A stretch of DNA of 64,000 bases from Alphaproteobacteria bacterium (GTDB taxonomy: Bacteria > Pseudomonadota > Alphaproteobacteria > SHVV01). The stretch is from the NCBI GenBank assembly GCA_965261645.1, contig CBDHDJ010000004.1, positions 2,040,752-2,104,751 of the forward strand. Reading direction: 5' to 3'. Below are positions 6,660-46,220 of this stretch, piece after piece (the stretch's first letter is position 1; every line of letters begins with the position of its first letter). The notes under the pieces are model-generated. The model was not told the origin of the DNA and searched no databases. It was given only the letters and a program-made list of their open reading frames with translations. A program made the position numbers and the translations under genes.

Positions 6660-6722
6660 TGCTGCCCGCTCGTAGAGCTCCCGCGTCGTGACCGAAGACG
6701 GCGATGCCATCGTGCAGGCGTC

Positions 6723-9079: not shown

Positions 9080-10303
9080 ATGACGCATAGGGGTGAGGCT
9101 GCGGCTGTGCCGCGCACGCGCTGGGCGATCATCGGGCTGCTCTTCGCCGCGGGCCTGATCAGCGCCATGCAGATCGGTAAGGTGCCGCCGTCGCTGCCCG
9201 ATCTGCGCGTCGATCTTGCCATCGGCATGGTGGGTGCGAGTTGGATCGCGGCGATCTTCACGGTCATCGGCGCGATTGTCGGGATCGGCGCGGGCGCGTT
9301 CAGCGACTGGCTCGGCCATCGCAACATCGTCATCGGCAGCATCGTCTGCATCGCCTTGGGCAGCCTGCTCGGCGCGATGACGGACAGCCTGTCCATCCTG
9401 CTTCTGACCCGCGTGCTGGAAGGCGCGGGCTACATCGGAATTCTGGTGTCGGTGCCCTCGTTCACCGTGGAAGCCTCGCGGCGCGAGGATTACGACTTTA
9501 CCCTCGGCATCATCACACCGTTTCTGCCGGTCGGCTTCTCCGGCATGCTGGTGCTCTCGCCGCTGTTGCTCGAGGCGCATGGCTGGCGCGGCGTCTGGTA
9601 CTTCAATGCGATCGTCGCCGGCATTTTCCTCGTCATCCTCGTTCTCGGCACGCGCAACCTTTCAAGCCTGCCGAGCGCGCGCGCCACGACGACCAAGTTC
9701 AACGTGTCTGAGATCAGGCATGCGGTAGCCCGGCCCGGGCCCTTGGCGCTCGCCATGGCATTCTTCATTTACGGCGCGCAGTGGTTCGGGCTAAGCGCAT
9801 GGTTGCCCACGTTTCTCGTGGAGGATCAGGGCAAGTCCCTCGCAGTCGCCGCGAGCTTGAGCGCTCTCATCATTCTCATCAACGGCGTCGGGAACTTCCT
9901 GGCGGCCTGGCTCATGCGGATCGGCGTGCCGCGCTGGTCCATGCTTGTCGTTGGGCCGGCCGCCATGGCGTTGACCTCGCTGGGGATCTATTCCGCTGAA
10001 GTCGACGGTGACGTGAAGATCGCCTTGGCCATGGCGTTTACCTTCTTGAGCGGCGGCGTGGCGCCAGCGATCTTGGCTTCCGTGCCCGTCCACGCGCCGT
10101 CGCAGGATCAAATCGGCGCCGTCAACGGCATCGTCATGCAGGTCAACAGTCTGGCCTATCTGGTGGCCCCGCCTCTTTTCGCGACCGCCGTGGCGATGAC
10201 GGGGGGCTGGTTCGCCTCGGCGTGGATACAGGTGATCATGGGCATCGTCGGCGTCGCGACGGCGCTTTACCTCCGCCACGTGGAGCAGACCCAGCGAATG
10301 TGA
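9080..10303 (+). CDS. MFS transporter, paralog 2 (407 aa)
   Basis: It has the same length as 7682..8905 and matches it along the whole protein. Confidence 0.65.
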   Translation: MTHRGEAAAVPRTRWAIIGLLFAAGLISAMQIGKVPPSLPDLRVDLAIGMVGASWIAAIFTVIGAIVGIGAGAFSDWLGHRNIVIGSIVCIALGSLLGAMTDSLSILLLTRVLEGAGYIGILVSVPSFTVEASRREDYDFTLGIITPFLPVGFSGMLVLSPLLLEAHGWRGVWYFNAIVAGIFLVILVLGTRNLSSLPSARATTTKFNVSEIRHAVARPGPLALAMAFFIYGAQWFGLSAWLPTFLVEDQGKSLAVAASLSALIILINGVGNFLAAWLMRIGVPRWSMLVVGPAAMALTSLGIYSAEVDGDVKIALAMAFTFLSGGVAPAILASVPVHAPSQDQIGAVNGIVMQVNSLAYLVAPPLFATAVAMTGGWFASAWIQVIMGIVGVATALYLRHVEQTQRM

Positions 10304-10396
10304 GGGTGGTCGGGCGGCCTCGACCCCGGTACACTTGGCGCGACGGAATTCTCCACATTCCGTGTCGCGATGTCAGGGCAGGGGGGAGGCGCACGC

Positions 10397-11718
10397 ATGA
10401 TCAACGCCGACGATATTATCTGGCCGGCGGCCGATTTCAGCCGCGTGCCGTTCGCGGTTTACACCTCGTCCGAGGTCTATGAACGCGAGCAGGAGCGCAT
10501 CTTCCACGGCCCGGTGTGGCTCTATCTCGGCCTGCAGGCGAAAATCCCCGATCCGGGCGACTTTATGCAGACCTACGCGGGCGATACGCCCGTTGTGGTG
10601 TGCCGCGCCGAGGACCGCAGCATTCATGCGTTCATCAACCGTTGCGCCCATCGTGGCTCGCTCGTGGTGCGTGAACTCCGGGGCAACGCCAAGGACTTCA
10701 TGTGTGTCTACCACCACTGGCTCTACAACCTCAAAGGCGAGCTCCTCGGCGTGCCGTTCGAGCGCGGCGTCGGCGGCAAGGGCGGCATGCCCCGAGAATT
10801 CGACAAAGCCAATCACGGCCTCCAGATGTTCCGCGTGGAGACGCACAAGGAGGCGATCTTCGGCACCTTCAGCGATGAGGTCGATGACCTCGACGACTAT
10901 CTAGGCAAGGATATCTGCGCCGGTCTCGACCGCATCTTCTGCAAGCCGAACGTGGTTCTCGGCCATATGCGTCAGCGCTTCCCGTCCAACTGGAAAGCCT
11001 ATCTCGAGAACCTCAACGACGGCTTACACGGCGGACTGCTGCACCAGCTGCCCGTCGTCTTCGGCCTGCACCGCGCGACCCAGGAGGGCGAGTTCCTGCT
11101 CGATCCCTACGCGCGCTACAGCGCCGCCTACGTCTTGTTTAACAGCGACACCGAGCAGGACATTCACGACGGCTATGACGACGATATCCTCGGCGCCCAG
11201 GCCGAGGATCCTTTGATCTTCGCGGATCCCCAATTCCTCAACTACCGCGACGAGCTGGTGATCAGCATTCGGTCACCACGGCGACGGTGTTCCCCAACGT
11301 GCTCATCGCGCAGCTCTCCAACTTCCTCATGACGCGCCAGGTGCGACCCAAGGCGGCCAACGAGTTCGAGCTCTACTGGACCAGCCTCGGCTATGCCGAT
11401 GACGATCCCGAGTTGCGCAACATGCGCCAGCAGCAGGTCGGTTGGATGGGCCCGGGCGGCTGCATCTCATTGGAGGATTCGGAATCCGGCGTGCTGATCC
11501 AACGCGCCGTGCGCCGTCAGGGGGAGGAATATTCGGTCATCGAAATGGGCGGCAAGGGTCCGATCGGGAATCAGGACAGCATGATGACCGAAGTCGCCGT
11601 CCGCGGTTTCTGGCGTTACCACGCGTACATGATGGGCTACAAGCCCGTCGGCGGCTGGCCCAAGGGCTTTCCGCCCAAGCAGCCCAAGGCGAAGGCGAAC
11701 AGAAAAAGGGCGGCGTAG
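10397..11718 (+). pseudogene. Rieske [2Fe-2S] non-heme-iron oxygenase alpha subunit, paralog 1, interrupted by an apparent 1-nt deletion near 11268-11270
   Basis: Rieske motif CAHRG...CVYHHW and iron-site motif NDGLHGGLLH. The frame changes by -1 between ORF 10370..11332 and ORF 11287..11718. Reading att(t)cg restores ...DELVISISVTTATVFPNVLIAQL, which is colinear with paralog 2. ATG 10397 is preceded by GGGGGAGG. Confidence 0.7.
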
Positions 11719-12557: not shown

Positions 12558-12713
12558 GGTGTCCTCGCGGCCTGGCTTGATCGTGCCAAGACAACTCTAC
12601 TTGGTCTGCGGGGCGGCGGCGAGGGGGCTCAATCCTTATGACTCGCCTCATGGCTGCCGGGCCGATACCATGAGCGGTCGTCAGTCGGATGACTACGCCA
12701 GAGAGGGATGGAG

Positions 12714-14068
12714 ATGATTGCAGCGGACGATCTCGTGTGGCCCAAGGCGGATTTCAGCCGTGTGCCCTTCGCCGTTTATACCTCGCAGGATATTTTCGAA
12801 CGCGAGCAGGAGCGCATCTTCCACGGTCCGGTTTGGCTCTATCTCGGCCTCCAGGCGGAAATCCCCAATCCGGGTGATTTCATCCACACCTACGCCGGCG
12901 ATACGCCCGTCGTCGTGTGCCGCGCCGAGGACGGCACGATTCACGCCTTCATCAACCGCTGCGCCCACCGCGGCTCGCTGGTGGTGCGCGAGCGCCAGGG
13001 CAACGCCAAGGAGTTCATGTGCGTCTACCACCACTGGCTTTACAACCTCAAAGGTGAGCTCCTCGGCGTACCCTTCGAGCGCGGCGTCGGCGGCAAGGGC
13101 GGCATGCCGAAGGATTTCAAGAAGGCCAACCACGGCCTCAAGATGCTCAAGGTCGACACCTACAAGGAAGCGATCTTCGGCACCTTCAGCGATGAGGTTG
13201 AGCCGCTCAAGGAGTATCTCGGGCCGAGCATCCTTGGCGGCCTCGATCGCATCTTCTGCAAGCCGATCGAGATCTTGGGTCACATGCGCCAGCGCTTTCC
13301 GTCCAACTGGAAGGCCTATATCGAAAACCTCAACGATGGCTTCCATGCCGGGCTTTTGCACCAGCTGCCGGTGATCTTCGGCCTCCACCGCAACACCCAG
13401 GACACGCACATGGACCTGGATGAGTGGAAGCGCCACGACTACTTCTACGTCCATTTCGGTAGCGATACCGAGGACATGGTCCAGGAAGGCTACTCCGGCA
13501 CCACGCGCGGCAATCAGTACGACAACCCGATGGTGTTGGCGGACCCGCAGTCCTCAACTATCGCGATGAATGGAAGGACATGGTCTCGGTCGCCGGCGCC
13601 AGCATGTTCCCCTGCTTCCTCGTGGCCCAGCTCTCCAACTTCCTGATGACCCGCCAGGTCCGCCCCAAGGCGCCCAACGAGTTCGAGCTCTACTGGACGG
13701 CGTTCGGCTATGTCGATGACGATCCGGAACTCCGCAACATCCGCCAGCAACAGGTGACCTGGATGGGCTCGGGCGGCTGCATCTCGATCGAGGATTCCGA
13801 ATCCGGCGTCCTCATTCATCGCGCCATCCGCCGCGCGGACCGGGACTACTCCGTAATCGAAATGGGCGGTGTCGGCCCGATCGAGAGCCAGGACAACCAG
13901 ATGACCGAGGTCTGCCTTCGCGGCTTCTGGCGCTATTACGCCTATTTGATGGGCTACGAGCCGGTCGGCGGCTGGCCCAAGGGCTTCCCGCCCAAGAAGG
14001 CCAAGCTCCCGAAACTGATTGGGGGCCGCGCCAAAGTCAACGGCCGCCGGGCTCGCAAGGCCGCCTAA
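12714..14068 (+). pseudogene. Rieske [2Fe-2S] non-heme-iron oxygenase alpha subunit, paralog 2, interrupted by an apparent 1-nt deletion near 13550-13552
   Basis: It carries the same motifs as paralog 1. ...VLADPQ is in frame 0, then (F)LNYRDEWKDMVSVAGASMFPCFLVAQL is in frame -1. Paralog 1 reads cag ttc ctc where this copy reads cag tcc tc. The start at 12714 (MIAADD) parallels MINADD of paralog 1. Confidence 0.7.
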
Positions 14069-15920: not shown

Positions 15921-18143
15921 TCAAATGCCCAGGCTTTCGCTTGCCTCGGCAGGCAGGTCGCTGTTCACCGTGCCCCGCCATTCCGGCAGCTCGAAGTAGA
16001 ATGACGTCCCCTCGCCCAACGCAGTCCTGAAATCGATGCGCCCGCCCAGTTGCTCCATGATCTGCCGGCAGATCGCCAACCCAAGGCCGGTTCCGCCTTT
16101 GCGGCGCCTGTCCGACGAATCGGCTTGGGCGAACTTCTCGAATATGTGGGTGCGAAATTTTGGCGGAATGCCGAGGCCGTTGTCGGTCACGGTGACTCGG
16201 ATCTGTTCATTCCGGCGGGTGATGGTGATCGCTACCTGATCCCCCGTGGGCGAGAATTTGGCGGCGTTGGAAAGAAGTTTGGTGAGGACCTGGAGCAGGC
16301 GGTCGCTGTCCGCCCGGACGGTGGCGCCGGCTGCCCGATCCTCGACGGTGAAGAAGACATCAAACTGGCTGGCGAAGGCCTCGTTGGCTTCGATCGACTG
16401 TGTGACGAGCGTGCCAATGTCGAGGACGCCGATGTGATAGTCCATTCGTCCGGATTCGATCTTCTCGATGTCGAGGATGTCGTTGATGAGCCGGATCAAG
16501 CGATCGCAATTGCTGCGCGCGATCCCGACGAGCTCATTCGCCTTTTCAGAAGCGCCCCGGTAACGCCTTCGGCCAGCAATCCGAGAGAGCCGTTGATCGA
16601 GGTCAGCGGAGTGCGCAGCTCGTGACTCACCGTCGAAATGAACTCGTCCTTCAACTGCAAGACCTCTTTGCGCTCGGTGATGTCGTGGGCGGCGGCGTAG
16701 ATCAACTGGATCTCGGGGTTGGCAGTTGCATGCCACGTCAGCCAACGGTAGTTGCCATCCTGACACCGGTAGCGGTTTTCGAACTGCACCGTGACGTGTT
16801 CCCCTACCGCCAGCTTTTGCATCTCCAGCTCGGTTGCTTGACGATCATCGGGGTGGACGAATTCGAGGTAGGGCCGGGTAGCCAGCTCTTTCGCCGAGTA
16901 ACCGAATTTGTTCTGCCAGGCCGGGTTCAGCTTCCGGAAGTACCCGGTGAAGTCGGCGATGCAGAGCAATTCGAGCGAGACATCGAAGAATCCCTTCAGT
17001 TGCTCTGGCGGTCTTTGTCAGCTCTTTCGTTCGCTGCTCGACAAGCCGTTCGACGCTGCGGGTACGGTTCCCGCTGAGCAGCAAATAGGCCGCCAACAAA
17101 ACGGTAAACGCCATCCCGCCGGCCAGGAACCCCCAGGGTTCCCAGTTCGATAAATCGCTCAGAACCGCGCCGTTCGTCCAAGCCTCCATCGTCCAGGTTC
17201 GTCCGCCGACATCGAGCGAGCGGGTGAGAAGCGGATGGTCGAAATTGACGTCCTCGTCGGACTCAAGCTTGAAGTTTGCGGATGCCAGCGACAGGTGCGA
17301 GTGGGAGCGGTAGAGAAGCCGCCGGAGCTCCGGGTTGGTATCGTCATACACGTGGATGTCGAGCCCTTCGCTGCCGCCTGGCTGCTGGTCGAAGCGACCC
17401 ACAAAAGCCTGGTTCATCATGTCGCCGATGCGAAAGACGGCGAGGGCGAATCCCGCCAAATTCTCACGCCGTTGCTCCGTGGTCCCGTGGGGATGCCCTT
17501 TTTGGTATACCGGCGCAAAGATCAGAAGTCCCAGTTTGATCCCCTCATCCTGCACCAGTTTTATTGCGCTGCTGGCCACCATGGCGCCACTGTCGCGCTC
17601 TGTCTCCAGCGTTTCACTGCGGGCGGCGTTGGAGGCGAGGTCGAAACCCAACGCGGCTTCGTTCCCCGTGTAGGGCTCGACGTAGTAGACCGGGAAATAT
17701 TCGTCCCGCCCGCCGGCTGGGACCAACTGGTGCCCCGGCGTCCGTTCCGTGATCTAAAAGCCGGGGAACTCATCCTCGCGCGCGGCCTTTTCATAGTCGG
17801 CGCGCTCGGCCGCTGGAACGCGCGCTACCCACTCGAGGGCCTGAATGCTCGGGTAACGCTCCAACGCAGAGCGCACGAAGGTGCGGAACTCCTGCCGGTC
17901 GACAAAATTGGAGCCTTCGTAGAAGGCGACGATCGAGCGCAGGACTTCCTTGTTGCTTTCGATACGCCGTTCGACCAGATGAACGCGGCTGGACACGACT
18001 TCCTTGAGGCGGGCTTCGATACGGTCGATCTCGTGGACTTTGGCGAGGTGAAACGCCATGGCCGAGAGGGCGCAACCCATGATCACGGCCAAGATCACCG
18101 GTACATGGCGAAGAACGGGATTTTGCCTGAAGCGTGGCATCAC
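15921..18143 (-). pseudogene. CHASE-TM-PAS-HisKA-HATPase sensor histidine kinase, decayed (one in-frame TAG plus two frameshifts)
   Basis: Four consecutive ORF pieces (17754..18143, 16845..17726, 16496..16969, 15921..16766) together make up one kinase: CHASE-like N-terminus, PAS (HDITERK), H-box SHELRTPL, and an ATPase G-box (GGTGLGLAI). Lesions are a TAG at 17754..17756, a frameshift near 16996-17000, and another near 16556-16560. Confidence 0.75.
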
Positions 18144-18369: not shown

Positions 18370-20700
18370 TCAGGGCTTTGCGGCGCTTTGAATCGCGCGC
18401 CACACGCGTTCGGGCGTGGCCGGCATCTTGAGATGCGTGATACCGAGCTCGCCCAGCGCATCGAGGATGGCGTTGATGACCGCGGGCGGCGCTCCCACGG
18501 CGCCCGCCTCGCCCGCGCCCTTGACGCCGAGCGGGTTGGTGGTGCACGGGATCTCGTTCCACTTGATGGTCATCGCCGGCAGATCGTCGGCGCGTGGCAC
18601 GCTGTAGTCCATCAAGCTGCCGGTGAGCAACTGACCCGATTCCGCATCGTAGACTGTGTCCTCCATGACCGACTGGCCGATGCCCTGGACGACGCCGCCA
18701 TGAACCTGACCCGCGATCAGCAGTGGGTTGACCACCACGCCGAAATCATCGACGACAACGTAATCGACGAGCTCGCATGCCCCGGATTCGGGATCGATCT
18801 CGAGCTCGCAGATATGGCAGCCATTGGGATAGGTCGAGGCTTCCGGCGTGAACTCGGCCACGCCGGCAAGGGCATCGGATGGATTCCCGCCGTCCCGCCG
18901 CCGGGCTTCGCCGGCAATGTCGAAGAGGCTCAGCGAACGGTCGGTGCCGGCGACGGTGAATCGCCCCTCGGCGAACTCGAGATCTTGAGGCGCGACTTCG
19001 AGGCGCTCAGCCGCAAGGTCGCGACTCTTGGCGAGCAGATCATCGCTCGCCTGATCCACCGCCGGGCCAGCCGTCGCCATCGTGCGCGAGCCCCCGGTCA
19101 TGCTGCCGACGGTGATTTCTGCCGTGTCGCCCTGGCGCACGTTGATGCGTTCCATAGGTAGCTCGAGCCGCCCGGCGATAACCTGGGCGAGACAGGTTTC
19201 GTGGCCCTGGCCGGTCGCCTGGCCGCCGATCAACAGGGTCACCGTGTCGTCCTCCTCGGGTCGAATCACAGCCTCATCGCCGCCCATGTCGGGTCCGCCA
19301 CAGGCTTCAACATAGTAGGCCATGCCGATGCCGCGGAGCCGGTCCCGCCCCTTGGCTTCGTTACGTCGCGCCGAAAAGTCGTCCCAGCCGATCAACTCCA
19401 TGGCTCCATCCATGTTGCGTGCGAACTCGCCGCTGTCGTAGGTGACGTCGAGCGCCGTCGTATAAGGCATCGCATCGCTGGCGATGAAGTTGCGCCGGCG
19501 TAACTCGCAGGGATCAACGTCGAGCCGGCGCGCCGCCTCGTCGACCAGCCGCTCGGTGATATAGATCGCTTCGGCCGCACCGACGCCGCGATAGGCGTCC
19601 ACCGGTACGGTGTGCGTGAACACGCCTTTCACCGCGAAGTGGGCGGCCGGGATGGCATAAACGTTCGTGATGTGACCCGCAGCGACGAAGGTCGGCATCA
19701 TCCCGGCCGCGGTCGACAGATAGCCGCCCATATTGGCGTTGGTGTCTACTTTGAGGCCGAGAAAGTGCCCGTCCGCGTCGAGGGCCAGCGCCGCGTGGCT
19801 GGCATAGTCGCGACCCTGGGCATCGCCGGTGAACGATTGACTTCGGTCGCCGGTCCATTTGACTGGACGGCCGATTTTCCGGGACGCCCACATGGTGAGC
19901 GGATATTCGGGGTAGAGATAGCCCTTGGAGCCGAAGCTGCCACCGACATCCGGCGTGACGACGCGGATCTTCTCCGCCTCCACATGGAACACCTCGCCCG
20001 CGAGCATGTCGCGGAGAAAGTGGGCGCCCTGGGAGGTGGCATAGAGCGTGTAGCTCTCTTCTTTCGAATCGTAAAGGCCGATCGCCGCGCGCGGCTCGAT
20101 GGAGTTGGGCACCAGCCGGTTGTTGAAGAGATCAAGCTCCACGACATGGGCGGCACCGGCGAAAGCGTCCTCGGTGGCGGCGGCGTCTCCCAGCTCCCAA
20201 TCGAAGCTGGTGTTGTTGGGCTGGTCATCCCAAACCTGCGCGACGTCGGCCTGGGTGGCCTTGGCCGTGTCGATGACGACGGCGAGGGCCTCGTAACTCA
20301 CCTCGATCATCTCGGCGGCATCGCGAGCCTGTGCATAAGTGTCGGCCACGACAAACGCGACCGCGTCACCGACATGGCGGACGCGCTCGCGCGCCAGCAC
20401 CGAGTGGGGCGGCACGGTGTTTTCGCTGCCGTCGCGGTTGGCGACGAGACCGTAAGAGGGAAGAACGCCAACGCCGTCGGCATCCGCATCGGCTGCGGTG
20501 AGCACGCAAAGGACACCCGCGCAGGCTTGCGCGTCCTTAACGTCAATGCCGCGGAGCGCCGCATGGGCGTGGGGCGAGCGGAGGACATAGGCGTACGCTT
20601 GATCGGGCAAACTGATGTCGTCGGTATAGCGGCCCGTGCCGGTAAGAAATCGCCTATCCTCATTGCGCCTGACCGGTTGCCCGATACCGCATTTCTTCAT
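18370..20700 (-). CDS. Xanthine dehydrogenase/CoxL family molybdopterin-binding large subunit, tandem copy 3 (776 aa), with a variant active-site loop
   Basis: Hammerhead-type N-terminus GQPVRRNEDRRFLTGTGRYTDD and C-terminal NPLGVKGAGEAG. The loop reads AYRGVGAAE instead of AYRGAGRPE. A GAGGGAG RBS lies upstream. Confidence 0.8.
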   Translation of the reverse strand: MKKCGIGQPVRRNEDRRFLTGTGRYTDDISLPDQAYAYVLRSPHAHAALRGIDVKDAQACAGVLCVLTAADADADGVGVLPSYGLVANRDGSENTVPPHSVLARERVRHVGDAVAFVVADTYAQARDAAEMIEVSYEALAVVIDTAKATQADVAQVWDDQPNNTSFDWELGDAAATEDAFAGAAHVVELDLFNNRLVPNSIEPRAAIGLYDSKEESYTLYATSQGAHFLRDMLAGEVFHVEAEKIRVVTPDVGGSFGSKGYLYPEYPLTMWASRKIGRPVKWTGDRSQSFTGDAQGRDYASHAALALDADGHFLGLKVDTNANMGGYLSTAAGMMPTFVAAGHITNVYAIPAAHFAVKGVFTHTVPVDAYRGVGAAEAIYITERLVDEAARRLDVDPCELRRRNFIASDAMPYTTALDVTYDSGEFARNMDGAMELIGWDDFSARRNEAKGRDRLRGIGMAYYVEACGGPDMGGDEAVIRPEEDDTVTLLIGGQATGQGHETCLAQVIAGRLELPMERINVRQGDTAEITVGSMTGGSRTMATAGPAVDQASDDLLAKSRDLAAERLEVAPQDLEFAEGRFTVAGTDRSLSLFDIAGEARRRDGGNPSDALAGVAEFTPEASTYPNGCHICELEIDPESGACELVDYVVVDDFGVVVNPLLIAGQVHGGVVQGIGQSVMEDTVYDAESGQLLTGSLMDYSVPRADDLPAMTIKWNEIPCTTNPLGVKGAGEAGAVGAPPAVINAILDALGELGITHLKMPATPERVWRAIQSAAKP

Positions 20701-20733
20701 GCGCTCGCTCCCTCAATCGCGCCGCTCGGCGCG

Positions 20734-23058
20734 TCAGCCGCTGGTGCCGTGAATGGCCTGCCAAATGGTCTCGGGCGTGGCCGGCATGTCGATGTGGGTC
20801 ACGCCGAATTCGGACAATGCGTCCACGATCGCATTGATGATCGCCGGTGCCGCGCCCACCGTGCCGGCCTCGCCGGCGCCCTTGACGCCAAGCGGGTTGG
20901 TGGTGCACGGGATCTCGTTCCACTTGGTCGAGAGCGGCGGAAAATCCGACGCGCGCGGCATGCCGTAATCCATGAAGCTCCCGGTCAAAAGTTGGCCGGA
21001 CTCTTCGTCGTAGATGGCATCCTCCATCAGCGCCTGGCCGGCGCCTTGCGCGATGCCGCCATGGACCTGGCCGGCGATGAGCAAGGGGTTGATGACCTTG
21101 CCGAAATCATCGACCACCGTGTAGGCGACAAGCACGATCGCGCCAGTGTCCGGGTCGATCTCGACTTCAACGATGTGACAACCATTGGGGTAGGTCGGGG
21201 CCTCCGGCTGGTACTCGCCCGCACCCTTCAACCCGTTGGTTTCGCCGCTTCGTTCGCGCGCCGCGGCACCGACATCGAACAAGCTCTTCCAACGGTCGGT
21301 GCCCGCCACCGTAAACCGGCCGTCGGCGAATTCGATGTCGCTGCCCGACACCTCCAGGAGTTCGGCGGCGATAGCCCGACCGTTGTCAATGACGTCTTTC
21401 ACCGCCCTGGTGACGGCAGCGCCGCCTGCAACCATGGAGCGCGAGCCCCCTGTGCCGCCCCCCCGCGCGATTTCGGCCGTGTCACCCTGGCGCATGTTGA
21501 TCTGGTCGAACGGGACGCCGAGCCCTTCGGCCACGAGTTGAGCGAAGCAGGTCTCGTGGCCCTGTCCACTTGCCTGGGTGCCGATCAAGAGCGTCACGGT
21601 TTCGTCATCCTCGACGCGGAGGGTGGCGTTCTCCGGGCCGAGTGAGGGCGAGGCGCTGGCCTCGACGTAGTAGGCGATGCCGATGCCGCGCCGCTTGCCG
21701 CGCTGACGGGCGGCATCGCGACGCTTGTCAAACCCGCCCATGTCGGCGATGTCGCGCGCCTCGGCCATGTTGCGGCCGAACTCACCGCTGTCGTAGGTGC
21801 CGCCAAACGCCGTGGTGAAGGGCATGGCCTCGGGCGCGATGAAATTGCGCTGGCGCAGCTCGAGCGGATCGAAGCCGAGCTCCCGCGCCGCCTTGTCGAT
21901 CAGGCGCTCGATCAGATAGCTCGCCTCGGGCCGGCCGGCGCCGCGATACGCATCGACTGGAATGGTGTGGGTGAACACGCCCTTGACCACTTGATACGCC
22001 GCCGGAATCGCGTAGACCCCGCCTTGAACCCCCTTGCACGCATCCGTCGGCACGACCGTGGCGAAATTCGAGAGATACGAGCCCAGATTGGCGATCGTGC
22101 TGATGCGGTAGCCGAGAATCTTGCCCTCGGAATCAAAGGCGAGCTCAGCCGCCGTGACGTGGTCGCGGCCTTGGGCGTCGCTGATGAAGGACTGGCTTCG
22201 GTCGCCGGTCCATCTCACGGGTCGGCCAATCTTTTTTGACGCCCACAGAATCAGCGGATACTCGGCGTAAAGATAGAGCTTCATGCCGAAGCCGCCACCG
22301 ACATCAAGGGTCACGACGCGCACCTTCTCCCGCGGCACCTGCAGCACGCTCGTCGCGAGCATATTCTGAATGTAATGCACGCCCTGGGAGACGGTGTGGA
22401 TCGTGTAGCTCTCGTCGGCCGCGTCGTAGGCGCCGATCGCCGCGCGCGGCTCCATGGCGTTGGCGACAACCCGATTGTTGATGAGCTCGATCCCAACGAC
22501 ATGCGCCGCACCGGCAAACGCCTGGTCGGTCGCGTCTTTGTCGCCGGTCTCCCAGTCGAAACAGATGTTGTTCGCGGCATCGTCCCACACCAGCGGCGCG
22601 CCGGGCCCGATCGCCTTGGCGGTGTCGGTGATCGATGGCAGGGGCGCGTAATCGACCGCGATGAGCTCCGCCGCGTCGCGCGCCTGGTTAGCCGTCTCCG
22701 CGACCACCAATGCGACCTCATCACCGACGTGGCGCACCCGGTCCCGTACCAGCGGCCAATGAGGCGGCGCGTGAGACTTGCTGCCGTCGCGATTGTCGAG
22801 CTGAACAAAGGAGGGATTGCTTCCCAGGCCATCGGCTTCGGCGTCGGCGCCGGTGAGCACGCACAGCACGCCGGGCACCGCCTTCGCCGCACTGGTATCG
22901 ATGCCGCGGATCGCCGCGTGAGCGTGGGGTGAACGGAGGACAAAGGCATACGCCTGGTCCGGCAGGTTCAAGTCGTCGGTGTACTGGCCCTGCCCCGTGA
23001 GCAGGCGCTGGTCTTCCTTGCGCGTGACCGGCTGACCGGCACCGAACTTCATCACCAC
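20734..23058 (-). CDS. Xanthine dehydrogenase/CoxL family molybdopterin-binding large subunit, tandem copy 2 (774 aa)
   Basis: It shares the family motifs (AYRGAGRPE, NPLGVKGAGEAG). The gap to the next gene is 33 nt. Confidence 0.8.
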   Translation of the reverse strand: MVMKFGAGQPVTRKEDQRLLTGQGQYTDDLNLPDQAYAFVLRSPHAHAAIRGIDTSAAKAVPGVLCVLTGADAEADGLGSNPSFVQLDNRDGSKSHAPPHWPLVRDRVRHVGDEVALVVAETANQARDAAELIAVDYAPLPSITDTAKAIGPGAPLVWDDAANNICFDWETGDKDATDQAFAGAAHVVGIELINNRVVANAMEPRAAIGAYDAADESYTIHTVSQGVHYIQNMLATSVLQVPREKVRVVTLDVGGGFGMKLYLYAEYPLILWASKKIGRPVRWTGDRSQSFISDAQGRDHVTAAELAFDSEGKILGYRISTIANLGSYLSNFATVVPTDACKGVQGGVYAIPAAYQVVKGVFTHTIPVDAYRGAGRPEASYLIERLIDKAARELGFDPLELRQRNFIAPEAMPFTTAFGGTYDSGEFGRNMAEARDIADMGGFDKRRDAARQRGKRRGIGIAYYVEASASPSLGPENATLRVEDDETVTLLIGTQASGQGHETCFAQLVAEGLGVPFDQINMRQGDTAEIARGGGTGGSRSMVAGGAAVTRAVKDVIDNGRAIAAELLEVSGSDIEFADGRFTVAGTDRWKSLFDVGAAARERSGETNGLKGAGEYQPEAPTYPNGCHIVEVEIDPDTGAIVLVAYTVVDDFGKVINPLLIAGQVHGGIAQGAGQALMEDAIYDEESGQLLTGSFMDYGMPRASDFPPLSTKWNEIPCTTNPLGVKGAGEAGTVGAAPAIINAIVDALSEFGVTHIDMPATPETIWQAIHGTSG

Positions 23059-23147
23059 GTCGGATCCTCCCTGTACCTCACGGTGTCGCGCTGGGTGGCT
23101 CTTGCCCGTTCAGCCTATGATGACCGTGCGCCGTTGGCGGAACAATA

Positions 23148-25472
23148 TTAAATCCCCCTGGCGGCGTGGATGGCCGACCAGACGCGTTCGGGGGTGGCCG
23201 GCATGTCGATGTGGGTGATGCCGTACTCGGCGAGCGCGTTAACGATGGCGTTGATGACCGCCGGCGGCGCGCCGATGCTGCCGGCTTCGCCTGCGCCCTT
23301 GACGCCGAGCGGATTGGTGCGGCAGGGGATCTCGTTCCAGCTTACGTCCATCATGGGCAGATCGCTCGCCCGCGGCATGGCGTAATCCATGAAACTGCCG
23401 GTGAGGAGTTGACCCGTCTCCTCGTCGTAGACGGCGTTCTCGAGGAGCGCCTGGCCGATCCCCTGGGCGATGCCGCCATAGACCTGGCCGGCCGCCAACA
23501 GCGGGTTGATCACGGTGCCGAAGTTGTCGACGGCGGTAAAGGCAACGACTTCGAGCGCGCCTGTCTCGGGGTCGATTTCCACCTCGCAGACGTGGAAGCC
23601 GTTGGGGTAGGTCGAGGCCTCAGAGCTCGCCTGCGCCCGGCCTTCGAGGGGATCCGCACCGATCCCGCCGTGGCCCTCACGGGCGACGGCCGCGACGTCG
23701 AAGATGCCGACACCCCGGTCGGTTCCGGTGACGATGAATTGACCCTCGGCGAACTCGATGTCCGTGGCGGCGGCATCGAGCAGTTCGGCGGCGGTCGGCT
23801 TGGCCTTGTCGATCACGGTCTCGACCGCGGCGTTCACGGCGAGCCCGCCGATCACCATCGAACGCGAACCCAGGGCGCCGCCGCCGAGCGACGTTTCGCT
23901 GGTGTCGCCCTGGCGGACATGGATTTTCTCAAAGTCGATGCCGAGAGCATCCGTCAGCATCTGCGCATAGGACGTCTCATGACCCTGACCGTTGGCCTGC
24001 GTACCGATGAACAGCGTGACCGTCTCATCCTTCTCAAAGCGAATTGCGGCTTCCTCGGGTCGGAGGTAAGGACCAGCGCAGGTGTCGATATAGCCCGAGA
24101 TGCCAATGCCGCGAAGCCGGTCGCGCGTGCGCGCTTCCTCGCGCCGAGCGGGGAACTCGCTCCACCGGGCCGCGGCGAGACTATCGTCGAGGTTGCGGGC
24201 GAACTCGCCCGTGTCATAGGTCATGCCGAGCGCCGTGGTGTAGGGCATCGCCTCGGGCGAAATGAGGTTGCGCCGGCGGATTTCGGCGGGATCCAGACCG
24301 AGTTCCTGAGCCGCCAGATCGATCAACCGTTCGATGCGGTAGATCGCCTCGGGCCTTCCTGCGCCGCGGTAGGCATCGACCGGCACGGTATTGGTGAACA
24401 CGCCCTTCACCGCAACATACGCATCGGGGATCGCGTAGACGCTGGTCTGGATACCGCCATAAAAACTCTGCACCACCGTCGCCACGTTGGAGAGGTAGGC
24501 GCCCATGTTGGCGTAGGATTCCGAGCGCACGGCGAGGAAACGGCCATCATCGTCGAACGCAAGCTCGGCGTGGGTGACGTTGTCGCGGCCATGCGCATCG
24601 CTGATGAAGGACTGGCTGCGATCGGCGCACCATTTGACCGGCCGGCTTACTTTTTTGGCGGCCCACAGGGCCAGCGCCTGATCCTGATAGACATGGATCT
24701 TCGCGCCGAATCCACCGCCCACGTCGGGCGTGATCACCAGCATCTTCTCGGGCGGGACCTGAAAAATATCGTTCGCGAGAACGTCGCGGAAACGGTGGGA
24801 GGACTGGGTGCAGGTATAGATGGTGTAGCGCTCACCCGCGGCGTCGTGGAGCGCGAGCGCCGCGCGCGGCTCGATCGGGTTCGGCGCGACCCGGTTGTTG
24901 ACGAGATCGAGCTTGACGACGTGCGGCGCTGAAGCGAACACGGCATCGATCGCTTCGCGCTCGCCCTGCTCGACGAAAAAGCAGATATTGCCGGGGGCGT
25001 CGTCCCAGATTTGCGGGGTTCCCTCAGCCGCTGCCGTTGCAGTCGCCGCGGCGACTGGGAGGGGCCGGTAGTCGATGGCGATCAACTCTGCCGCATCGCG
25101 CGCCTGATCGAGCGTTTCGGCGACGACGAGCGCCACCGCATCGCCGACGTGATGAACCCGGCCCTTGGCCAGCATCGGATGCGGCGGGTAGGCGTTCTGG
25201 CTGCCGTCCACATTGTCGATGCGGTAGATGCACGGCACGTCACTGAGGCCGTCGGCCTCGACGTCGGCGCCGGTCAGAACGGCCAGCACGCCAGGCGCGG
25301 CCCCAGCCGTCCTCGTGTCAATCGCGCCGATCTCGGCATGCGCGTGCGGTGAGCGCAAGACGTAGGCGTAAACCTGACCGGGCACGTCTATGTCGTCGGT
25401 ATAGCGGCCCGCGCCAGTGAGAAAACGAGGATCTTCCGCCCGCCTCACCGGTTGGCCGATGCCGAACTTCAT
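23148..25472 (-). CDS. Xanthine dehydrogenase/CoxL family molybdopterin-binding large subunit, tandem copy 1 (774 aa)
   Basis: The start was moved to ATG 25472 (MKFGIGQPVRRAEDPRFLTG) by analogy with the two paralogs. The ORF-track start at 25757 overlaps the upstream RidA gene in another frame. Confidence 0.8.
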   Translation of the reverse strand: MKFGIGQPVRRAEDPRFLTGAGRYTDDIDVPGQVYAYVLRSPHAHAEIGAIDTRTAGAAPGVLAVLTGADVEADGLSDVPCIYRIDNVDGSQNAYPPHPMLAKGRVHHVGDAVALVVAETLDQARDAAELIAIDYRPLPVAAATATAAAEGTPQIWDDAPGNICFFVEQGEREAIDAVFASAPHVVKLDLVNNRVAPNPIEPRAALALHDAAGERYTIYTCTQSSHRFRDVLANDIFQVPPEKMLVITPDVGGGFGAKIHVYQDQALALWAAKKVSRPVKWCADRSQSFISDAHGRDNVTHAELAFDDDGRFLAVRSESYANMGAYLSNVATVVQSFYGGIQTSVYAIPDAYVAVKGVFTNTVPVDAYRGAGRPEAIYRIERLIDLAAQELGLDPAEIRRRNLISPEAMPYTTALGMTYDTGEFARNLDDSLAAARWSEFPARREEARTRDRLRGIGISGYIDTCAGPYLRPEEAAIRFEKDETVTLFIGTQANGQGHETSYAQMLTDALGIDFEKIHVRQGDTSETSLGGGALGSRSMVIGGLAVNAAVETVIDKAKPTAAELLDAAATDIEFAEGQFIVTGTDRGVGIFDVAAVAREGHGGIGADPLEGRAQASSEASTYPNGFHVCEVEIDPETGALEVVAFTAVDNFGTVINPLLAAGQVYGGIAQGIGQALLENAVYDEETGQLLTGSFMDYAMPRASDLPMMDVSWNEIPCRTNPLGVKGAGEAGSIGAPPAVINAIVNALAEYGITHIDMPATPERVWSAIHAARGI

Positions 25473-25510
25473 CGCAGCCCGTCTGTTGCCGGAGGAGAGG
25501 CGATCGCCCC

Positions 25511-26701
25511 CTAGCCTCCGCTGCCCGGCTTGTAGGCGATCGCGTCGATCTCGACGCGCATGCCCGGCAGGGCGAATTTCTGAATGCCGAGCACGTGGCT
25601 CGCCGGCTTGCCGCTGCCGAAATACTTCTGCCGCACCGGGTCGATCTTCTCCTGATCGTTGATGTCGAGGAGGTAGAAGTTGGCCTTGACGATATCGCCG
25701 AAGTCCATGTTTGCGGCTTTGAGGACCTCGCCGAGATTGCTGAGCGTCTGGTTGCACTGCGCCGCGATGTCGTCCCCGCCGACGAGCTCGAGATCACCGG
25801 TCCACGGGCCGGCGCCCGCCAGATGCAAAAAGTCACCGGCTTGCACAGCATCGGTGTAGTGGCTGATCGGCTCGTTCAGCTGGGGCAGGCGGATCTCCTT
25901 GCGCTTGGGCGCACTACCGCTCGGCTTGTAGCACGCCGCCTCGATCTCGACGTTAAGGTTTGGCACCGCGAGCTTGACCTCGAACAGCGTGCTCGCCGGC
26001 CGATGCTTGCCGAAGAACTCCTCGCGCACCGCGCTGACCTTCTGACGGTCGTCCACATTGGTGAGGTAGACGATGACCGACGAGATATCCTCGAAGTCCA
26101 TATCGATGGCGTTGAGCTTCCTCTTCATGTTGGAGAGCGTGACGCGGGTCTGCTCCGCGATGTCGTCGCCGCCGATGATGTTCCAGTCCTTGTCGTTGGC
26201 GACGGCGGCGAGCCAGGCGTAATCGCCGCATCTCACGATGTGGGTATAGTGGCTGAGCGGCGTCGCGAAGCCCGGCGGGACGATCTCCTCGCGCGCCGGC
26301 GCACCGCTCGTCGCCTTGTAGGCGAAGGCATCGACCTCGAGCTTCGCGCCCGGACGGGACAGCTCATTCACGCCGACCAGGGTGCTGGTCGAGCGCGGAT
26401 CACCGAAGAACTCCTGGCGCATCGGATTGATGGCCGGCCGGTCGTTGCAGTCGAGCAGCGAGACCTTGAAGTCGATGATGTCGCCGAAGCCCATGTCGTT
26501 GGCCTCCAGCGCCGTCTTGATGTTCTCGCAGGTTTGGCGGGCCTGGGCGGCGATGTCGCCCTCGCCGACGACATTGCCCTGGGCGTCATAGGGCCCGGCG
26601 CTCGCCAGGAAACAAAAATCACCGGCCGCGACCGCATGGGCCGAGTGGCCCGGCGGCGGGGCCAGCCCGTCAACGTTGATCTCGCGTCGTGGACCTGCCA
26701 T
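25511..26701 (-). CDS. Protein made of three fused RidA/YjgF/L-PSP (endoribonuclease L-PSP) domains, 396 aa
   Basis: It splits by eye into three ~130-aa units. Each has the RidA layout (..SHYT..GD..L.G......GDDIAAQ...L.N....L.A..M.F.DI.....YL.......R...F....PAST........G..VEI...AYKP.SG). Confidence 0.75.
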   Translation of the reverse strand: MAGPRREINVDGLAPPPGHSAHAVAAGDFCFLASAGPYDAQGNVVGEGDIAAQARQTCENIKTALEANDMGFGDIIDFKVSLLDCNDRPAINPMRQEFFGDPRSTSTLVGVNELSRPGAKLEVDAFAYKATSGAPAREEIVPPGFATPLSHYTHIVRCGDYAWLAAVANDKDWNIIGGDDIAEQTRVTLSNMKRKLNAIDMDFEDISSVIVYLTNVDDRQKVSAVREEFFGKHRPASTLFEVKLAVPNLNVEIEAACYKPSGSAPKRKEIRLPQLNEPISHYTDAVQAGDFLHLAGAGPWTGDLELVGGDDIAAQCNQTLSNLGEVLKAANMDFGDIVKANFYLLDINDQEKIDPVRQKYFGSGKPASHVLGIQKFALPGMRVEIDAIAYKPGSGG

Positions 26702-26784
26702 GGAACTTCCCCCCTTGGTGATTCAAGTGTTGAACAGGCGCACCCCCCGGTTGCCGTGCTTTGGGGTGCGTAGCGGAGTCGGTC

Positions 26785-27981
26785 TTAGCCGCCGCTGCCT
26801 GGCTTGTAGGCGACCGCGTCGATCTCGATGCGCATGCCCTCGAGGGCGAACTCATCGATTGCGATGAGGGTGCTGGCGGGTCGGCTGTTGCCGAAATATT
26901 TCTCGCGTACGGGATTGATGATGGTGCGGTCGGCCACGTCGTCGAGATAGACGGTGACTTTGACCACGTCCTCGAAGCCCATGCTGGCGGCCGCGAGAAT
27001 CTCACCCAAGTTCGACAGCGTCTTGTCGCACTGCGCCGCGATATCGTCCCCGCCGACAAGCTCGAGATCGCCGGTCCACGGGCCGGCGCCCGACAGGAAC
27101 AGGAAATCGCCGCACTGCACGCCGTCGGTGTAATGGCTGATCGGCTCGTTGAGCTGTGCAAGGCGGATCTCCTTGCGTTTGGGACCGCCGCTCTTGGGCT
27201 TATAGGCGACCGATTCGATCTCGATATTCATGCCCGGCACCGCCAGCCGGGGGATACCGATCAGCGTGCTCGCGGGCCTGTGCTCGCCGAAAAATTCCTG
27301 GCGCAACTCGTTGACCGCGTGCCGGTCATGGACGTTGGGGAGAAAGACGATGACGCGGGCCACGTCCTCGAAGCCCATGTCGACCGATGCAAGCATCTTC
27401 CGCAGGTTCTCGAGCGCGACGCGAGCCTGCGCCCGAATATCGTCACCGCCGACGATGCCGCCGTCGGCATCGAACGGGCAGGCGCCGGCGAGAAACGCGA
27501 AATCGCCGCAATCGACGACGTCGGTATAATGGCTGAGTGGCGTGGGGAAGCCGTCGAGGCGCAGCTCCTTGCGCGGCGCTCCGCCATCGCTTGGCTTGTA
27601 GGCCATGCACTCCGCCTCGACCAACAGCTCGGGAAACGCGAGCGCGCTGCACTCGACAAGCGTGCTGGCCGGCCGGAAGTCGCCAAAATTCTTCTGCCGC
27701 GCCGGGTTGATCTTGGGCCGGTCGTCGGTGTTGGGAAGGAAGGCCTCGAAGTTGACGATATTCTCGAAACCCATGCCGGCGGCATCGAGAACCGCCTTGA
27801 TGTTCTTGTGCATCTGCTCCGACTGCGCGGCCGGATCGCCGACGCCGACGACGTTGTTTTCGCCATCGACCCCGACCTGTCCCGACAGGAACAGGAGATC
27901 GCCGCACAACACGCCGTCGGTGTAGTGGCTGATCGGCTCGCCCGCCGTGGCGATGCGAATCTCTTTCTTCGGAGCACCCAT
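26785..27981 (-). CDS. Protein made of three fused RidA/YjgF/L-PSP domains, 398 aa (paralog of 25511..26701)
   Basis: It has the same three-unit architecture. Unit 3 (PKRKEIRLAQLNEPISHYTDGVQCGDFLFLSGAGPWTGDLELVGGDDIAAQC...) is nearly identical to unit 3 of the neighbouring gene. Confidence 0.75.
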   Translation of the reverse strand: MGAPKKEIRIATAGEPISHYTDGVLCGDLLFLSGQVGVDGENNVVGVGDPAAQSEQMHKNIKAVLDAAGMGFENIVNFEAFLPNTDDRPKINPARQKNFGDFRPASTLVECSALAFPELLVEAECMAYKPSDGGAPRKELRLDGFPTPLSHYTDVVDCGDFAFLAGACPFDADGGIVGGDDIRAQARVALENLRKMLASVDMGFEDVARVIVFLPNVHDRHAVNELRQEFFGEHRPASTLIGIPRLAVPGMNIEIESVAYKPKSGGPKRKEIRLAQLNEPISHYTDGVQCGDFLFLSGAGPWTGDLELVGGDDIAAQCDKTLSNLGEILAAASMGFEDVVKVTVYLDDVADRTIINPVREKYFGNSRPASTLIAIDEFALEGMRIEIDAVAYKPGSGG

Positions 27982-28212
27982 GACATCCTCCCTGATGAGC
28001 GCATGATCTCAGCGTTCTGTGATTATGCGGCCATCCTAGCCGCGCGAAGGAGGCCCTGCAATAGGACGACAGCGGCCTCGACCAACGCCGTATGGCGCTC
28101 AGTGGTTGAAACCCGGGCTTGTTGTTAAACTGCTCTCATTCGATCCGGCGGTGTCCGTCCGCAGGCGCGTTTGAGCCTGCGAATCGGGGCTGCGGTCTGA
28201 CACAAGAGCGCA

Positions 28213-29850
28213 ATGGAACGCCACATGAGTACACAGGAACCAAACGCCGCGGCCGGCGACCCGGTCGCGGGCAGGCTGCAAAAACTCATCGACATCGGAA
28301 TCGCCCTGTCGGCGGAGCGCAATCACGACCGCTTGATGGAGCGTATCCTGACGGAAGCGCAGAAGCTCTGTAACGCGGACGGCGGCACGCTTTACTTGCG
28401 CGATGAGGAGGATCACCTGGTCTTCACCATCGTGCACAAGGATTCCCTCGGCGTTGCCATGGGCGGGACCACCGGCAGCGAGATCACCTTCCCGCCGCTT
28501 GAGCTTTACGATTCGCAAACCGGCGCGCGCAACGAAAAGAACGTCGCGACTTACGCGGCGTTGGCCGAGCGCACCGTCAACATCGCCGATGCATACGAAG
28601 CTGAGGACTTCGATTTCAGCGGCACCCGGACGTTCGACGAGCGGACAGGTTACCGTTCCAAGTCTTTTCTGACGGTTCCGCTCATGAACTATGACGGCGA
28701 TATCATTGGCGTTCTCCAGCTCATCAACGCGGTGGACACAGAGACCGGCGAGGTGATCGTCTTCGGGGCGCGCCTGCAGCAGATCGTCGAGGCGCTCGCT
28801 TCGCAGGCCGCGGTAGCGCTCGACAACCAGATGCTGCTGGAGGCGCAACGGGACCTGCTCGAATCGTTCATCCGTTTGATCGCGGTCGCCATCGACGAGA
28901 AGTCGCCCTACACGAGCGGTCACTGCCAGCGCGTGCCCGTGCTCGCCGAAATGATCGCCGAGGCCGCCTGCCAGGCGCACCAGGGTCCGTTCAAGGACTT
29001 CAGCCTGACCGAAGACGAGATGTACGAGCTCCGCATCGCGGCGTGGATGCACGACTGCGGCAAGGTCACCACGCCGGAATATGTGGTCGACAAGTCGACC
29101 AAGCTAGAAACCATCTACGACCGCATCGATTTGGTCACAACCCGCACAGAGATCCTCAAGCGGGACGCCGAGATCGCTTACCTGCGCGCCGTGGCCGGCG
29201 GAAGCGGCGATGAACCCGCGCTCCGGGCCGAGCGCGATGCGACCCTGGCGCGCCTCGCCGATGAGCTCGCCTTCATCGAGAAAACCAATATCGGAGGCGA
29301 ATTCCTGTCGGACGACGATAAGGAACGGGTGACGGAGATCGCGACTCGGTCGTGGAGCGATGGCGAGGGTGAGGAGGTGCCGTTTCTCTCCGACGACGAG
29401 GTCGCCAATCTGAACATCTCGCGCGGCACGCTCACCCACGACGAGCGCGAGGTCATCAACAACCACGTGGTGGTGACGATCAAGATGCTGGAGCAGCTGC
29501 CGTTTCCCAAGAACCTGCGTCGCGTGCCCGAATACGCCGGCGGCCATCACGAGCGGATGGACGGCTCGGGCTACCCGCTGGGCTTGACGCGCGATCAGAT
29601 GTCGATCCCGGCGCGCATGATGGCGCTGGCCGACATTTTCGAGGCCCTGACTGCGGCCGACCGGCCCTACAAGAAGGCCAAACCGGTGACCGAATCAATC
29701 GGCATCATGAGTCGCATGATGAAGACAGATCACATCGACGCCGAGTTGTTCGAGCTGTTCCTCAAAGCCGGCGTCTACCGGAAATATGCCGAGAAATTCC
29801 TGCCCTCAGAGCAGGCGGACGAGATAGATATCAGAGCCTATCTGAACTGA
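28213..29850 (+). CDS. GAF domain / HD-GYP domain protein (putative c-di-GMP phosphodiesterase)
   Basis: The N-terminal GAF-like region (LCNADGGTLYL..., GVLQLINA) is followed by an HD region (HCQRV..., WMHDCGK) and HHERMDGSGYP. Confidence 0.75.
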   Translation: MERHMSTQEPNAAAGDPVAGRLQKLIDIGIALSAERNHDRLMERILTEAQKLCNADGGTLYLRDEEDHLVFTIVHKDSLGVAMGGTTGSEITFPPLELYDSQTGARNEKNVATYAALAERTVNIADAYEAEDFDFSGTRTFDERTGYRSKSFLTVPLMNYDGDIIGVLQLINAVDTETGEVIVFGARLQQIVEALASQAAVALDNQMLLEAQRDLLESFIRLIAVAIDEKSPYTSGHCQRVPVLAEMIAEAACQAHQGPFKDFSLTEDEMYELRIAAWMHDCGKVTTPEYVVDKSTKLETIYDRIDLVTTRTEILKRDAEIAYLRAVAGGSGDEPALRAERDATLARLADELAFIEKTNIGGEFLSDDDKERVTEIATRSWSDGEGEEVPFLSDDEVANLNISRGTLTHDEREVINNHVVVTIKMLEQLPFPKNLRRVPEYAGGHHERMDGSGYPLGLTRDQMSIPARMMALADIFEALTAADRPYKKAKPVTESIGIMSRMMKTDHIDAELFELFLKAGVYRKYAEKFLPSEQADEIDIRAYLN

Positions 29851-46201: not shown

Positions 46202-46220
46202 CAGGCTGCTGAACAAGTCA

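Follow-up and report, generated by a model that had tools for sequence, protein, structure and literature searches.

In the genomes of soil, marine and symbiont organisms, CoxL-like genes belong to the most strongly expanded and most poorly understood enzyme families, and annotation as CO dehydrogenase is a routine error. In the solved enzymes closest to the genes considered here, namely those containing CoxL of M. smegmatis (8uem), the quinoline 2-oxidoreductase subunit QorL (1t3q) and KdhL (7dqx), the molybdopterin-binding large subunit (L, or CoxL) is part of an L2M2S2 assembly with a FAD-binding medium subunit (M; CoxM, FAD_binding_5) and a small [2Fe-2S] subunit (S; CoxS, Fer2_2). A canonical gene order for such a system is the S-L-M-MoxR-VWA-XdhC operon of Azospirillum lipoferum 4B. 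A second family relevant to this work comprises tandem triple fusions of the Rid domain, a named architecture ('3x-RidA') that is regarded as a covalent trimer (Niehaus et al., 2015, PMC4433059). Here we describe a cluster of five genes within a 64-kb stretch of contig CBDHDJ010000004.1 of an uncultured alphaproteobacterium (the whole of the sequence analysed, hereafter the window), in which two 3x-RidA genes, RidA3a and RidA3b, precede three CoxL genes, CoxL-1 to CoxL-3. With moderate confidence, we read the cluster as a catabolic operon in which the L subunits would use S and M subunits encoded elsewhere and the RidA3 proteins would handle a pathway intermediate.

The RidA3-CoxL cluster and its conservation

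The genes of the cluster and the elements adjoining it upstream are as follows.

26785..27981, minus strand: RidA3a, a 3x-RidA protein of 398 aa with three PF01042 matches and an AF2 model
25511..26701, minus strand: RidA3b, a second 3x-RidA paralog of 396 aa, 55% identical to RidA3a
23148..25472, minus strand: CoxL-1, a molybdopterin-binding large subunit of the xanthine oxidase/carbon monoxide dehydrogenase (CODH) family, 774 aa, intact in the window
20734..23058, minus strand: CoxL-2, a tandem paralog of 774 aa with 61% identity to CoxL-1
18370..20700, minus strand: CoxL-3, a tandem paralog of 776 aa with 57-61% identity to CoxL-1 and CoxL-2
28213..29850, plus strand: a signalling gene with GAF and HD_5 (HD-GYP-type) domains (Pfam), 545 aa, divergent from RidA3a
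27982..28212, no strand: the divergent intergenic region of 231 nt, presumed to be the promoter region

The original prediction, made from the letters of the window, had placed five co-directional minus-strand genes at 18370-27981 with gaps of 83, 38, 89 and 33 nt counted from RidA3a, and this description is exact. All five open reading frames (ORFs) are intact, the Pfam assignments agree with those proposed, including three separate PF01042 matches in each RidA3 protein, and the GC content by codon position follows the pattern typical for genes of the window. A single transcription unit with a plausible ribosome-binding site at each gene had also been put forward. The common strand, the short gaps and the lack of a terminator-like hairpin within any of the four gaps agree with the former, and the cluster resembles a single unit of this kind. 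The latter was confirmed for four of the five genes, which are preceded by the Shine-Dalgarno-like sequences GGGAGGA, GGGGGGA, GGGAGGA and GAGGGAG, and not for CoxL-1, where the site is weak. A riboswitch or other known RNA in the leader was rejected, as a search with Rfam at gathering thresholds gave no matches anywhere in the window, leader included. No intergenic motif was found to be conserved beyond close relatives, and this applies equally to the 231-nt divergent region.

Conservation of the RidA-CoxL neighbourhood in related genomes was a point on which the prediction could have failed. The adjacency of one or two RidA3 genes to CoxL recurs in seven diverged alphaproteobacterial lineages. 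The same-strand, short-gap order RidA3-RidA3-CoxL is found in the window, in three sister contigs (L004-L006) that are 96% identical to and syntenic with it, and in four metagenome-assembled genomes (MAGs) of GTDB (L009, L013, L014 and L075), whose RidA3 proteins show approximately 45-50% and whose CoxLs show 55-57% identity to those of the window. A version with a single RidA3 gene is present in L001, followed there by an amidohydrolase gene, and in L178. In L014 (8064-10300) the upstream RidA3 copy looks truncated, and a minus-strand ORF between the two copies, foreign in composition with a third-position GC content (GC3) of 0.80 in a locus of 57% GC, is probably an insertion.

In neighbour-joining trees the CoxLs of the RidA3 loci form one clade (L178 was not placed). 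Within these trees CoxL-1 to CoxL-3 are mutual closest relatives, and at 57-61% identity they therefore derive from an old duplication specific to the lineage. Judged by sequence, the row of three is a lineage-specific tandem duplication of which one copy has already been deleted in sister strains: CoxL-1 of L004-L006 carries a clean internal deletion of 1868 bp, corresponding to window positions 23263-25130, which leaves a stub of 161 aa, while CoxL-2 and CoxL-3 are intact in the same three contigs and 95-96% conserved. The GAF/HD_5 gene was found by tblastn in the same divergent position at 96% identity in L004-L006 and at 63% in L013 and L014, and is thus conserved in three lineages (that of the window, L013 and L014).

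The genes beyond the module differ. The operon of L009 is extended by a Rieske oxygenase gene of the LigXa-like type and by four genes for an ABC importer of the polyamine type, and ORFs of L014 resemble these by size and position alone. Downstream of the module L013, L075 and L178 share an opposite-strand short-chain dehydrogenase/reductase (SDR) gene, a PAS kinase and the start of a pst operon, the full pstSCAB-phoU-phoB run being seen for L178 only, and both the window and L178 have a CHASE kinase on the downstream side. Apart from RidA3 and CoxL no enzyme gene was found to be conserved across all lineages. Such partly conserved surroundings would be expected if RidA3 and CoxL served unrelated processes and were merely inherited together in the neighbourhood of one alphaproteobacterial group, and both families do occur in many other contexts. 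We consider this unlikely and rank it as a lesser alternative: gene order is rarely kept without selection across lineages whose proteins are 45-65% identical, the genes share a strand with gaps of 33-110 nt and no terminators between them, and the RidA3-CoxL core stays constant while the flanks vary (L001, L009/L014 and L013/L075).

Large subunits without adjacent partners

Each of the three CoxLs contains Ald_Xan_dh_C, MoCoBD_1 and MoCoBD_2 at full length (Pfam, E 1e-28 to 1e-81). The matches to the closest solved relatives, 8uem (E 1e-155), 1t3q and 7dqx, are also full-length (E 1e-155 to 1e-126), with conservation of the Mo-site motifs. An alignment was made of the eight CoxLs of RidA3 loci (alignment A2: CoxL-1 to CoxL-3 and those of L001, L009, L013, L014 and L075), in which Q223 (TQ), G252, G253, F255, G256, A367-G370 and E729 (GAGE) are invariant and the GGGFG motif is mostly, not wholly, invariant. 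The active-site loop, located in CoxL-1 by alignment with 8uem and 1t3q, reads AYRGAGR, the signature of form II or 'putative CoxL' sequences. The eight proteins have the same consensus, with an invariant AYRG core. On these grounds CoxL-1 to CoxL-3 look like working catalytic subunits of molybdenum hydroxylases with a substrate other than CO, and their cofactor is probably the molybdopterin cytosine dinucleotide (MCD) form of the molybdenum cofactor.

Identification as CO dehydrogenase was rejected, as the loop is AYRGAGR, without Cys, instead of AYXCSFR with its Cu-binding Cys, TIGR02416 (CO_dehy_Mo_lg) gives 520-543 bits where the cutoff is 991, and coxMSDEFG genes are lacking. The glyceraldehyde dehydrogenase alpha model NF041018 gave 580-591 bits against a cutoff of 790, and none of the curated NCBIfam models reaches its cutoff for the CoxLs of the window.

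To locate S, M and XdhC genes a number of approaches were combined. Pfam searches of essentially all credible high-GC3 ORFs of the 64-kb window detected no Fer2_2, FAD_binding_5 or XdhC-type protein. With E. coli PaoA, PaoB and PaoD as queries tblastn found no matches in the window, while PaoA detected S genes at 24 other, unrelated loci, and a six-frame scan of the window for the CoxS cluster motif was empty. For S and M, profile hidden Markov models (HMMs) were constructed from sister-clade proteins (32 CoxS and 29 CoxM sequences) and then run with hmmsearch --max against every stop-to-stop ORF that reached 45 aa. Neither the window nor any of the related RidA3-CoxL loci gave a match, the sole hit being the positive control, the A. 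lipoferum operon, at 268 and 391 bits. The possibility of S or M genes in unannotated frames was rejected by the six-frame scan and the profile HMMs.

These four approaches agree with the original prediction that three large subunits stand here without a nearby S or M partner. It had further been foreseen that such genes might lie immediately outside the window in the same operon. The window extends more than 18 kb downstream and 36 kb upstream of the cluster without S or M, and the partners are therefore not just beyond it in that operon. In the related loci, covering seven lineages, no S, M or XdhC gene occurs within 10 kb of the module. The arrangement of S and M encoded beside L is thus lacking both in the window and, to that distance, in its relatives.

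The prediction had also taken it that large subunits of this family are almost always encoded next to S and M, and for this subfamily the premise has to be given up. The 80 closest CoxL relatives from JGI metagenomes are 43-57% identical. S/M genes lie beside L in 37 of them, often with XdhC 3-4 kb downstream, and 34 of these 37 form one coherent S-L-M clade. A further 22 have neither S nor M; flanking sequence of 3 kb or more on either side of L is available for 16 of them, and of 1.2 kb or more for the other six. These S/M-less sequences form a wide radiation, and the RidA3-linked clade falls inside it. Nested within this radiation are two S-M-L operons (L163 and L167) and one L with a neighbouring S gene (L114), and it follows that an L of this type can pair with S/M.

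Solitary CoxLs are also carried by two cultured organisms, Azospirillum thermophilum CFH 70021 (WP_109334050.1, 53% identity) and Desertibaculum subflavum (QOZS01000024, 58%), the former with a LysR gene upstream and EAL-domain genes downstream. Signalling genes of the c-di-GMP type adjoin solitary CoxLs in two unrelated settings, as GAF/HD-GYP at 28213-29850 of the window and as two EAL-domain genes of A. thermophilum (L174, 11448-15243), a proximity that may be coincidence. Clustering of neighbours revealed no recurrent alternative partner gene beside the solitary CoxLs, and a common alternative partner was rejected, the clusters consisting of SDRs, transporters and, in three related loci, cytochrome c.

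A loop of 13 residues, which follows the position of CoxL-1 residue 473 and is conserved in the S-L-M clade, is missing from CoxL-1 to CoxL-3 and from most solitary CoxLs. As a marker of S/M binding it was rejected, being absent from PaoC and from the S-M-L-linked L163 and L167 and present in the solitary CoxLs of the window that start at 4302 and 53392. It is through the N-terminal domain that KdhL holds KdhS, and the loop belongs to the C-terminal one.

The two solitary CoxL-like genes of the window that lie outside the cluster are listed here.

4302-6659, plus strand: CoxL-4, 785 aa, no S/M nearby, 13-residue loop kept
53392-55749, minus strand: CoxL-5, 785 aa, no S/M nearby, 13-residue loop kept

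CoxL-4 and CoxL-5 are 68% identical to each other and each is approximately 44% identical to CoxL-1 to CoxL-3. Together with P0152 elsewhere on the contig, the five genes of the window bring the number of solitary L genes in the genome to at least six. In the relative L176 (7652-12322) two CoxL genes of 773 aa each stand in tandem without RidA or S/M, and one of the two proteins is P0152. The L-only tandem arrays of the window and of L176 fit duplication of a specificity subunit that shares an electron-transfer module.

Triple-Rid proteins, the proposed pathway and neighbouring genes

The full-length triple-RidA family is represented by about 30 clusters among 5.8 billion proteins. Most of these are without a source name, the one that is named coming from a Defluviicoccus MAG (P0014, NCBI annotation), and nearly all full-length GTDB loci belong to alphaproteobacterial MAGs. 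From sample and isolate names, this MAG and related ones appear to be sponge-associated. The AF2 model of RidA3a (pLDDT 94.7, pTM 0.93) has three Rid-fold domains, and the protein is predicted to be a single-chain pseudo-trimer of such domains. Individually these domains superpose on RidA monomers with template modelling (TM) scores above 0.9. For the full-length model, the best Foldseek matches in the PDB are the chorismatases FkbO, Hyg5 and XanB2 (4bps, 5ag3, 5a3k), with approximately 365 aligned columns and TM scores of 0.54-0.66. Chorismatase identity was rejected, however, as RidA3a scores 24 bits with TIGR04444 against a cutoff of 325. The similarity is one of fold only, at 14-18% sequence identity, and the domain sequences are far nearer to RidA than to chorismatases.

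Against the RidA model TIGR00004 (cutoff 106) the two RidA3 proteins score 173 and 214 bits, each score being the sum of three domains. For comparison at residue level the E. coli RidA reference sequence was confirmed from the genome. Its 'FPARSC' aligns with 'RPAST' of RidA3, which places Ser at the Arg105 position. Of the six domains in RidA3a and RidA3b five have this substitution, including all three of RidA3a, and so do all three domains of most aligned relatives. An Arg/Lys stands two residues before this position and is nearly invariant in domain 2 only. The RidA3 proteins thus carry PF01042 and the Rid fold and lack the Arg105 that marks the RidA subfamily. According to Niehaus et al. 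(2015, PMC4433059), about 10% of RidA proteins have Ser here, and families that lack the Arg are likely to have another function. The earlier suggestion that the RidA-like proteins handle an imine or enamine is plausible by context. Its enzymatic side is less secure: imine deaminase activity, for which Arg105 is needed, can be proposed only as conjecture because that residue is replaced by Ser.

RidA3 genes also occur without CoxL, namely between glyoxalase and Amidohydro_1 genes (L002, L007 and L008), after Amidohydro_2 and Amidohydro_1 genes (L089) and among Rieske, amidase, glyoxalase and FAA-hydrolase genes (L091). The RidA3 of L002 (10001-11203, in the order glyoxalase-RidA3-amidohydrolase) is 84-85% identical to the CoxL-linked RidA3b of L009 and L014. 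The occurrence of such closely similar proteins in both CoxL and amidohydrolase contexts speaks for RidA3 as a metabolic enzyme of several pathways and against an obligate CoxL subunit. In a neighbour-joining tree RidA3a and RidA3b of the window group together, apart from the a and b clades of the other lineages, and the double-RidA3 state may have arisen twice.

These observations bear directly on whether RidA3a, RidA3b and CoxL form a physical complex, a Mo enzyme without classical S and M. In such a complex the RidA3 pseudo-trimers might channel substrate or product or cap the S-binding surface of CoxL, with another electron route or with non-redox chemistry. Several findings are compatible with this: S, M and XdhC are absent within 10 kb in seven lineages and throughout the window, the CoxLs adjoining RidA3 form a clade of their own, the two RidA3 genes, where two are present, are always different paralogs directly upstream of CoxL, and no further enzyme gene is kept in all lineages. 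On the other hand, RidA3 proteins, even one so close to the CoxL-linked b-type, stand elsewhere without CoxL, and neither the sister CoxLs L097, L098 and L111 nor the wider solitary radiation has a RidA neighbour. Redox cofactors are not known in Rid folds, S-M-L operons are nested within the same radiation, and we know of no characterised member of the xanthine oxidase family that works without its Fe-S partner. We consider a complex of this kind unlikely. The broader proposal, by which the RidA3 pair and solitary CoxL represent a new type of Mo enzyme and the solitary radiation a class with a non-canonical electron outlet or non-redox chemistry, strikes us as quite improbable.

The original prediction offered three options: L subunits that borrow S and M from elsewhere, a different electron outlet, and RidA-like proteins that deal with reactive products of N-heterocycle hydroxylation. 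Among these the evidence leans to borrowed S/M together with a metabolic role of RidA3. We infer that the three CoxLs serve as the catalytic Mo-cofactor subunits of hydroxylases or dehydrogenases for organic substrates, not CO, and that the copies arose by tandem duplication in the lineage and probably differ in substrate range. Each L would most likely assemble with a [2Fe-2S] S and a FAD M encoded elsewhere in the genome, several L paralogs sharing the same S/M, and electrons would pass from Mo through two [2Fe-2S] clusters to FAD. RidA3a and RidA3b, as putative covalently linked pseudo-trimers of the Ser-for-Arg105 Rid variant, would most likely have as ligand or substrate a reactive or tautomerising intermediate (an enamine, an imine or similar) that arises before or after hydroxylation, and the divergent GAF/HD-GYP protein probably senses a metabolite of the pathway. 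The substrate is probably a nitrogen-containing compound, as suggested by the amidohydrolase, Rieske oxygenase and ABC-transporter neighbours in related loci.

A number of points weigh against the catabolic operon with borrowed partners. The search reached the window only, no S or M gene of the genome has been seen, and the supply in trans is to that extent inferred. A shared S/M supply would have to serve six or more solitary L genes, which would be a heavy load. The Kdh enzyme of pAO1 was considered as a precedent for distant partners and set aside as weak, since kdhL is separated from kdhMS by one gene. With Arg105 missing, an imine deaminase activity of RidA3 should not be assumed. Lastly, that CoxL is so closely paired with two distinct RidA3 proteins, and with no other conserved enzyme, goes beyond the usual loose link within a pathway.

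The surroundings of the cluster include a second Rid-CoxL association within the same window (50007-63998). A single-domain Rid gene without Arg105 (52878-53312) directly follows CoxL-5 and is in turn followed by a fused ABC ATPase and a permease. The strand opposite to CoxL-5 carries Amidohydro_1 paralogs at 55894-62443, four in tandem, and at 62631-63998 a fifth stretch that resembles an amidohydrolase, shows 73% identity to one of the paralogs and extends to within 2 nt of the window end. At 6001-10000 the AT skew falls to -0.22 to -0.25 over an EamA and two major facilitator superfamily (MFS) transporter genes, which probably results from T-rich codons for hydrophobic residues.

Two copies of an insertion sequence (IS) of 1390 bp with a DUF772/DDE_Tnp_1 transposase (46198-47587 and 48621-50010) are 100% identical and inverted. 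The 1033-bp segment between them overlaps most of a 249-aa ORF without a Pfam match, and the pair with this segment looks like a composite transposon. Genes for two Rieske oxygenase alpha subunits, for the CHASE/HisKA kinase downstream of CoxL-3 and for an AidB-like acyl-CoA dehydrogenase appear to be split into two or three ORFs (10370-11718, 12708-14068, 15921-18143 and 36665-38463). In the sister contigs the kinase gene is interrupted by different IS elements. The split genes and the IS load suggest ongoing gene decay.

It could be argued that the CoxL array itself is redundant, with some or all copies non-functional amid IS expansion and gene loss. The 1868-bp deletion in CoxL-1 of the sister strains points in this direction, as do the fragmented kinase, oxygenase and dehydrogenase genes and the presence of at least three IS copies in the window. 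However, the five ORFs of the cluster are full length with typical codon-position GC and have kept the invariant catalytic residues, and CoxL-2 and CoxL-3 remain intact and conserved in all three sister contigs. We rank decay of the array among the lesser alternatives and consider it very unlikely.

Comparison with described systems

The findings bear on how CoxL genes are read in genomes. A large share of the form-II-like radiation consists of large subunits without nearby S/M genes, and one solitary CoxL clade keeps a stable association with two 3x-RidA proteins, joined in some lineages by a GAF/HD-GYP sensor. Should S and M be shared in trans, CoxL gene numbers would be a poor guide to how many distinct enzymes there are, and duplication of L alone would offer a cheap path to new substrate ranges. 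If they are not shared, an undescribed enzyme architecture exists inside the family. The cultured A. thermophilum and D. subflavum offer solitary CoxLs for direct study, and the linkage to CoxL provides a testable context for the Ser-variant 3x-RidA proteins.

The nearest described system is the form II CoxL of the coxS-coxL-coxM type, as in A. lipoferum 4B (AZO_p3). The CoxLs of the window share with it the three-domain architecture and the AYRGAGR loop, with 43-52% identity and a sister position in the tree. They differ in lacking adjacent S, M, MoxR/VWA and XdhC genes and in falling outside the coherent clade of 34 S-L-M-linked sequences. From the Mo-MCD hydroxylases of known structure, all of them L2M2S2 enzymes, they differ in the same absence of adjacent S/M, while sharing the Mo-site motifs, and from CO dehydrogenase in the absence of the CO-specific Cys of AYXCSFR.

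As tandem triple Rid fusions RidA3a and RidA3b belong to the 3x-RidA architecture, of which EF_0115 of Enterococcus faecalis is an example (Niehaus et al., 2015, PMC4433059). The family described here is distinguished by its rarity, its mainly alphaproteobacterial distribution, Ser in place of Arg105 and a PISHYTD motif. The linkage to CoxL is absent from that article, in which 'molybd' and 'xanthine' give no matches. The present genome also resembles those of sponge symbionts with COG1529 expansions, which hold many CoxL paralogs each, most of them of unknown substrate (Burgsdorf et al., 2021, PMC8941161). In contrast to the present analysis, that study describes neither a solitary L class nor a linkage to RidA, and 'RidA' and 'orphan' do not occur in its text.

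The L subunit of the xanthine oxidase family, the form II motif, the 3x-RidA architecture and the expansion of CoxL in sponge symbionts were thus already known. The original prediction did not recognise its combination of genes as a described system, and no description of RidA together with the xanthine-dehydrogenase family was found in the searchable literature. What appears to be new is the conserved RidA3-RidA3-CoxL module, with a CoxL clade of its own and, in some lineages, a GAF/HD-GYP neighbour, and the observation that a large radiation of solitary L genes exists beside the form II clade of S-L-M type.

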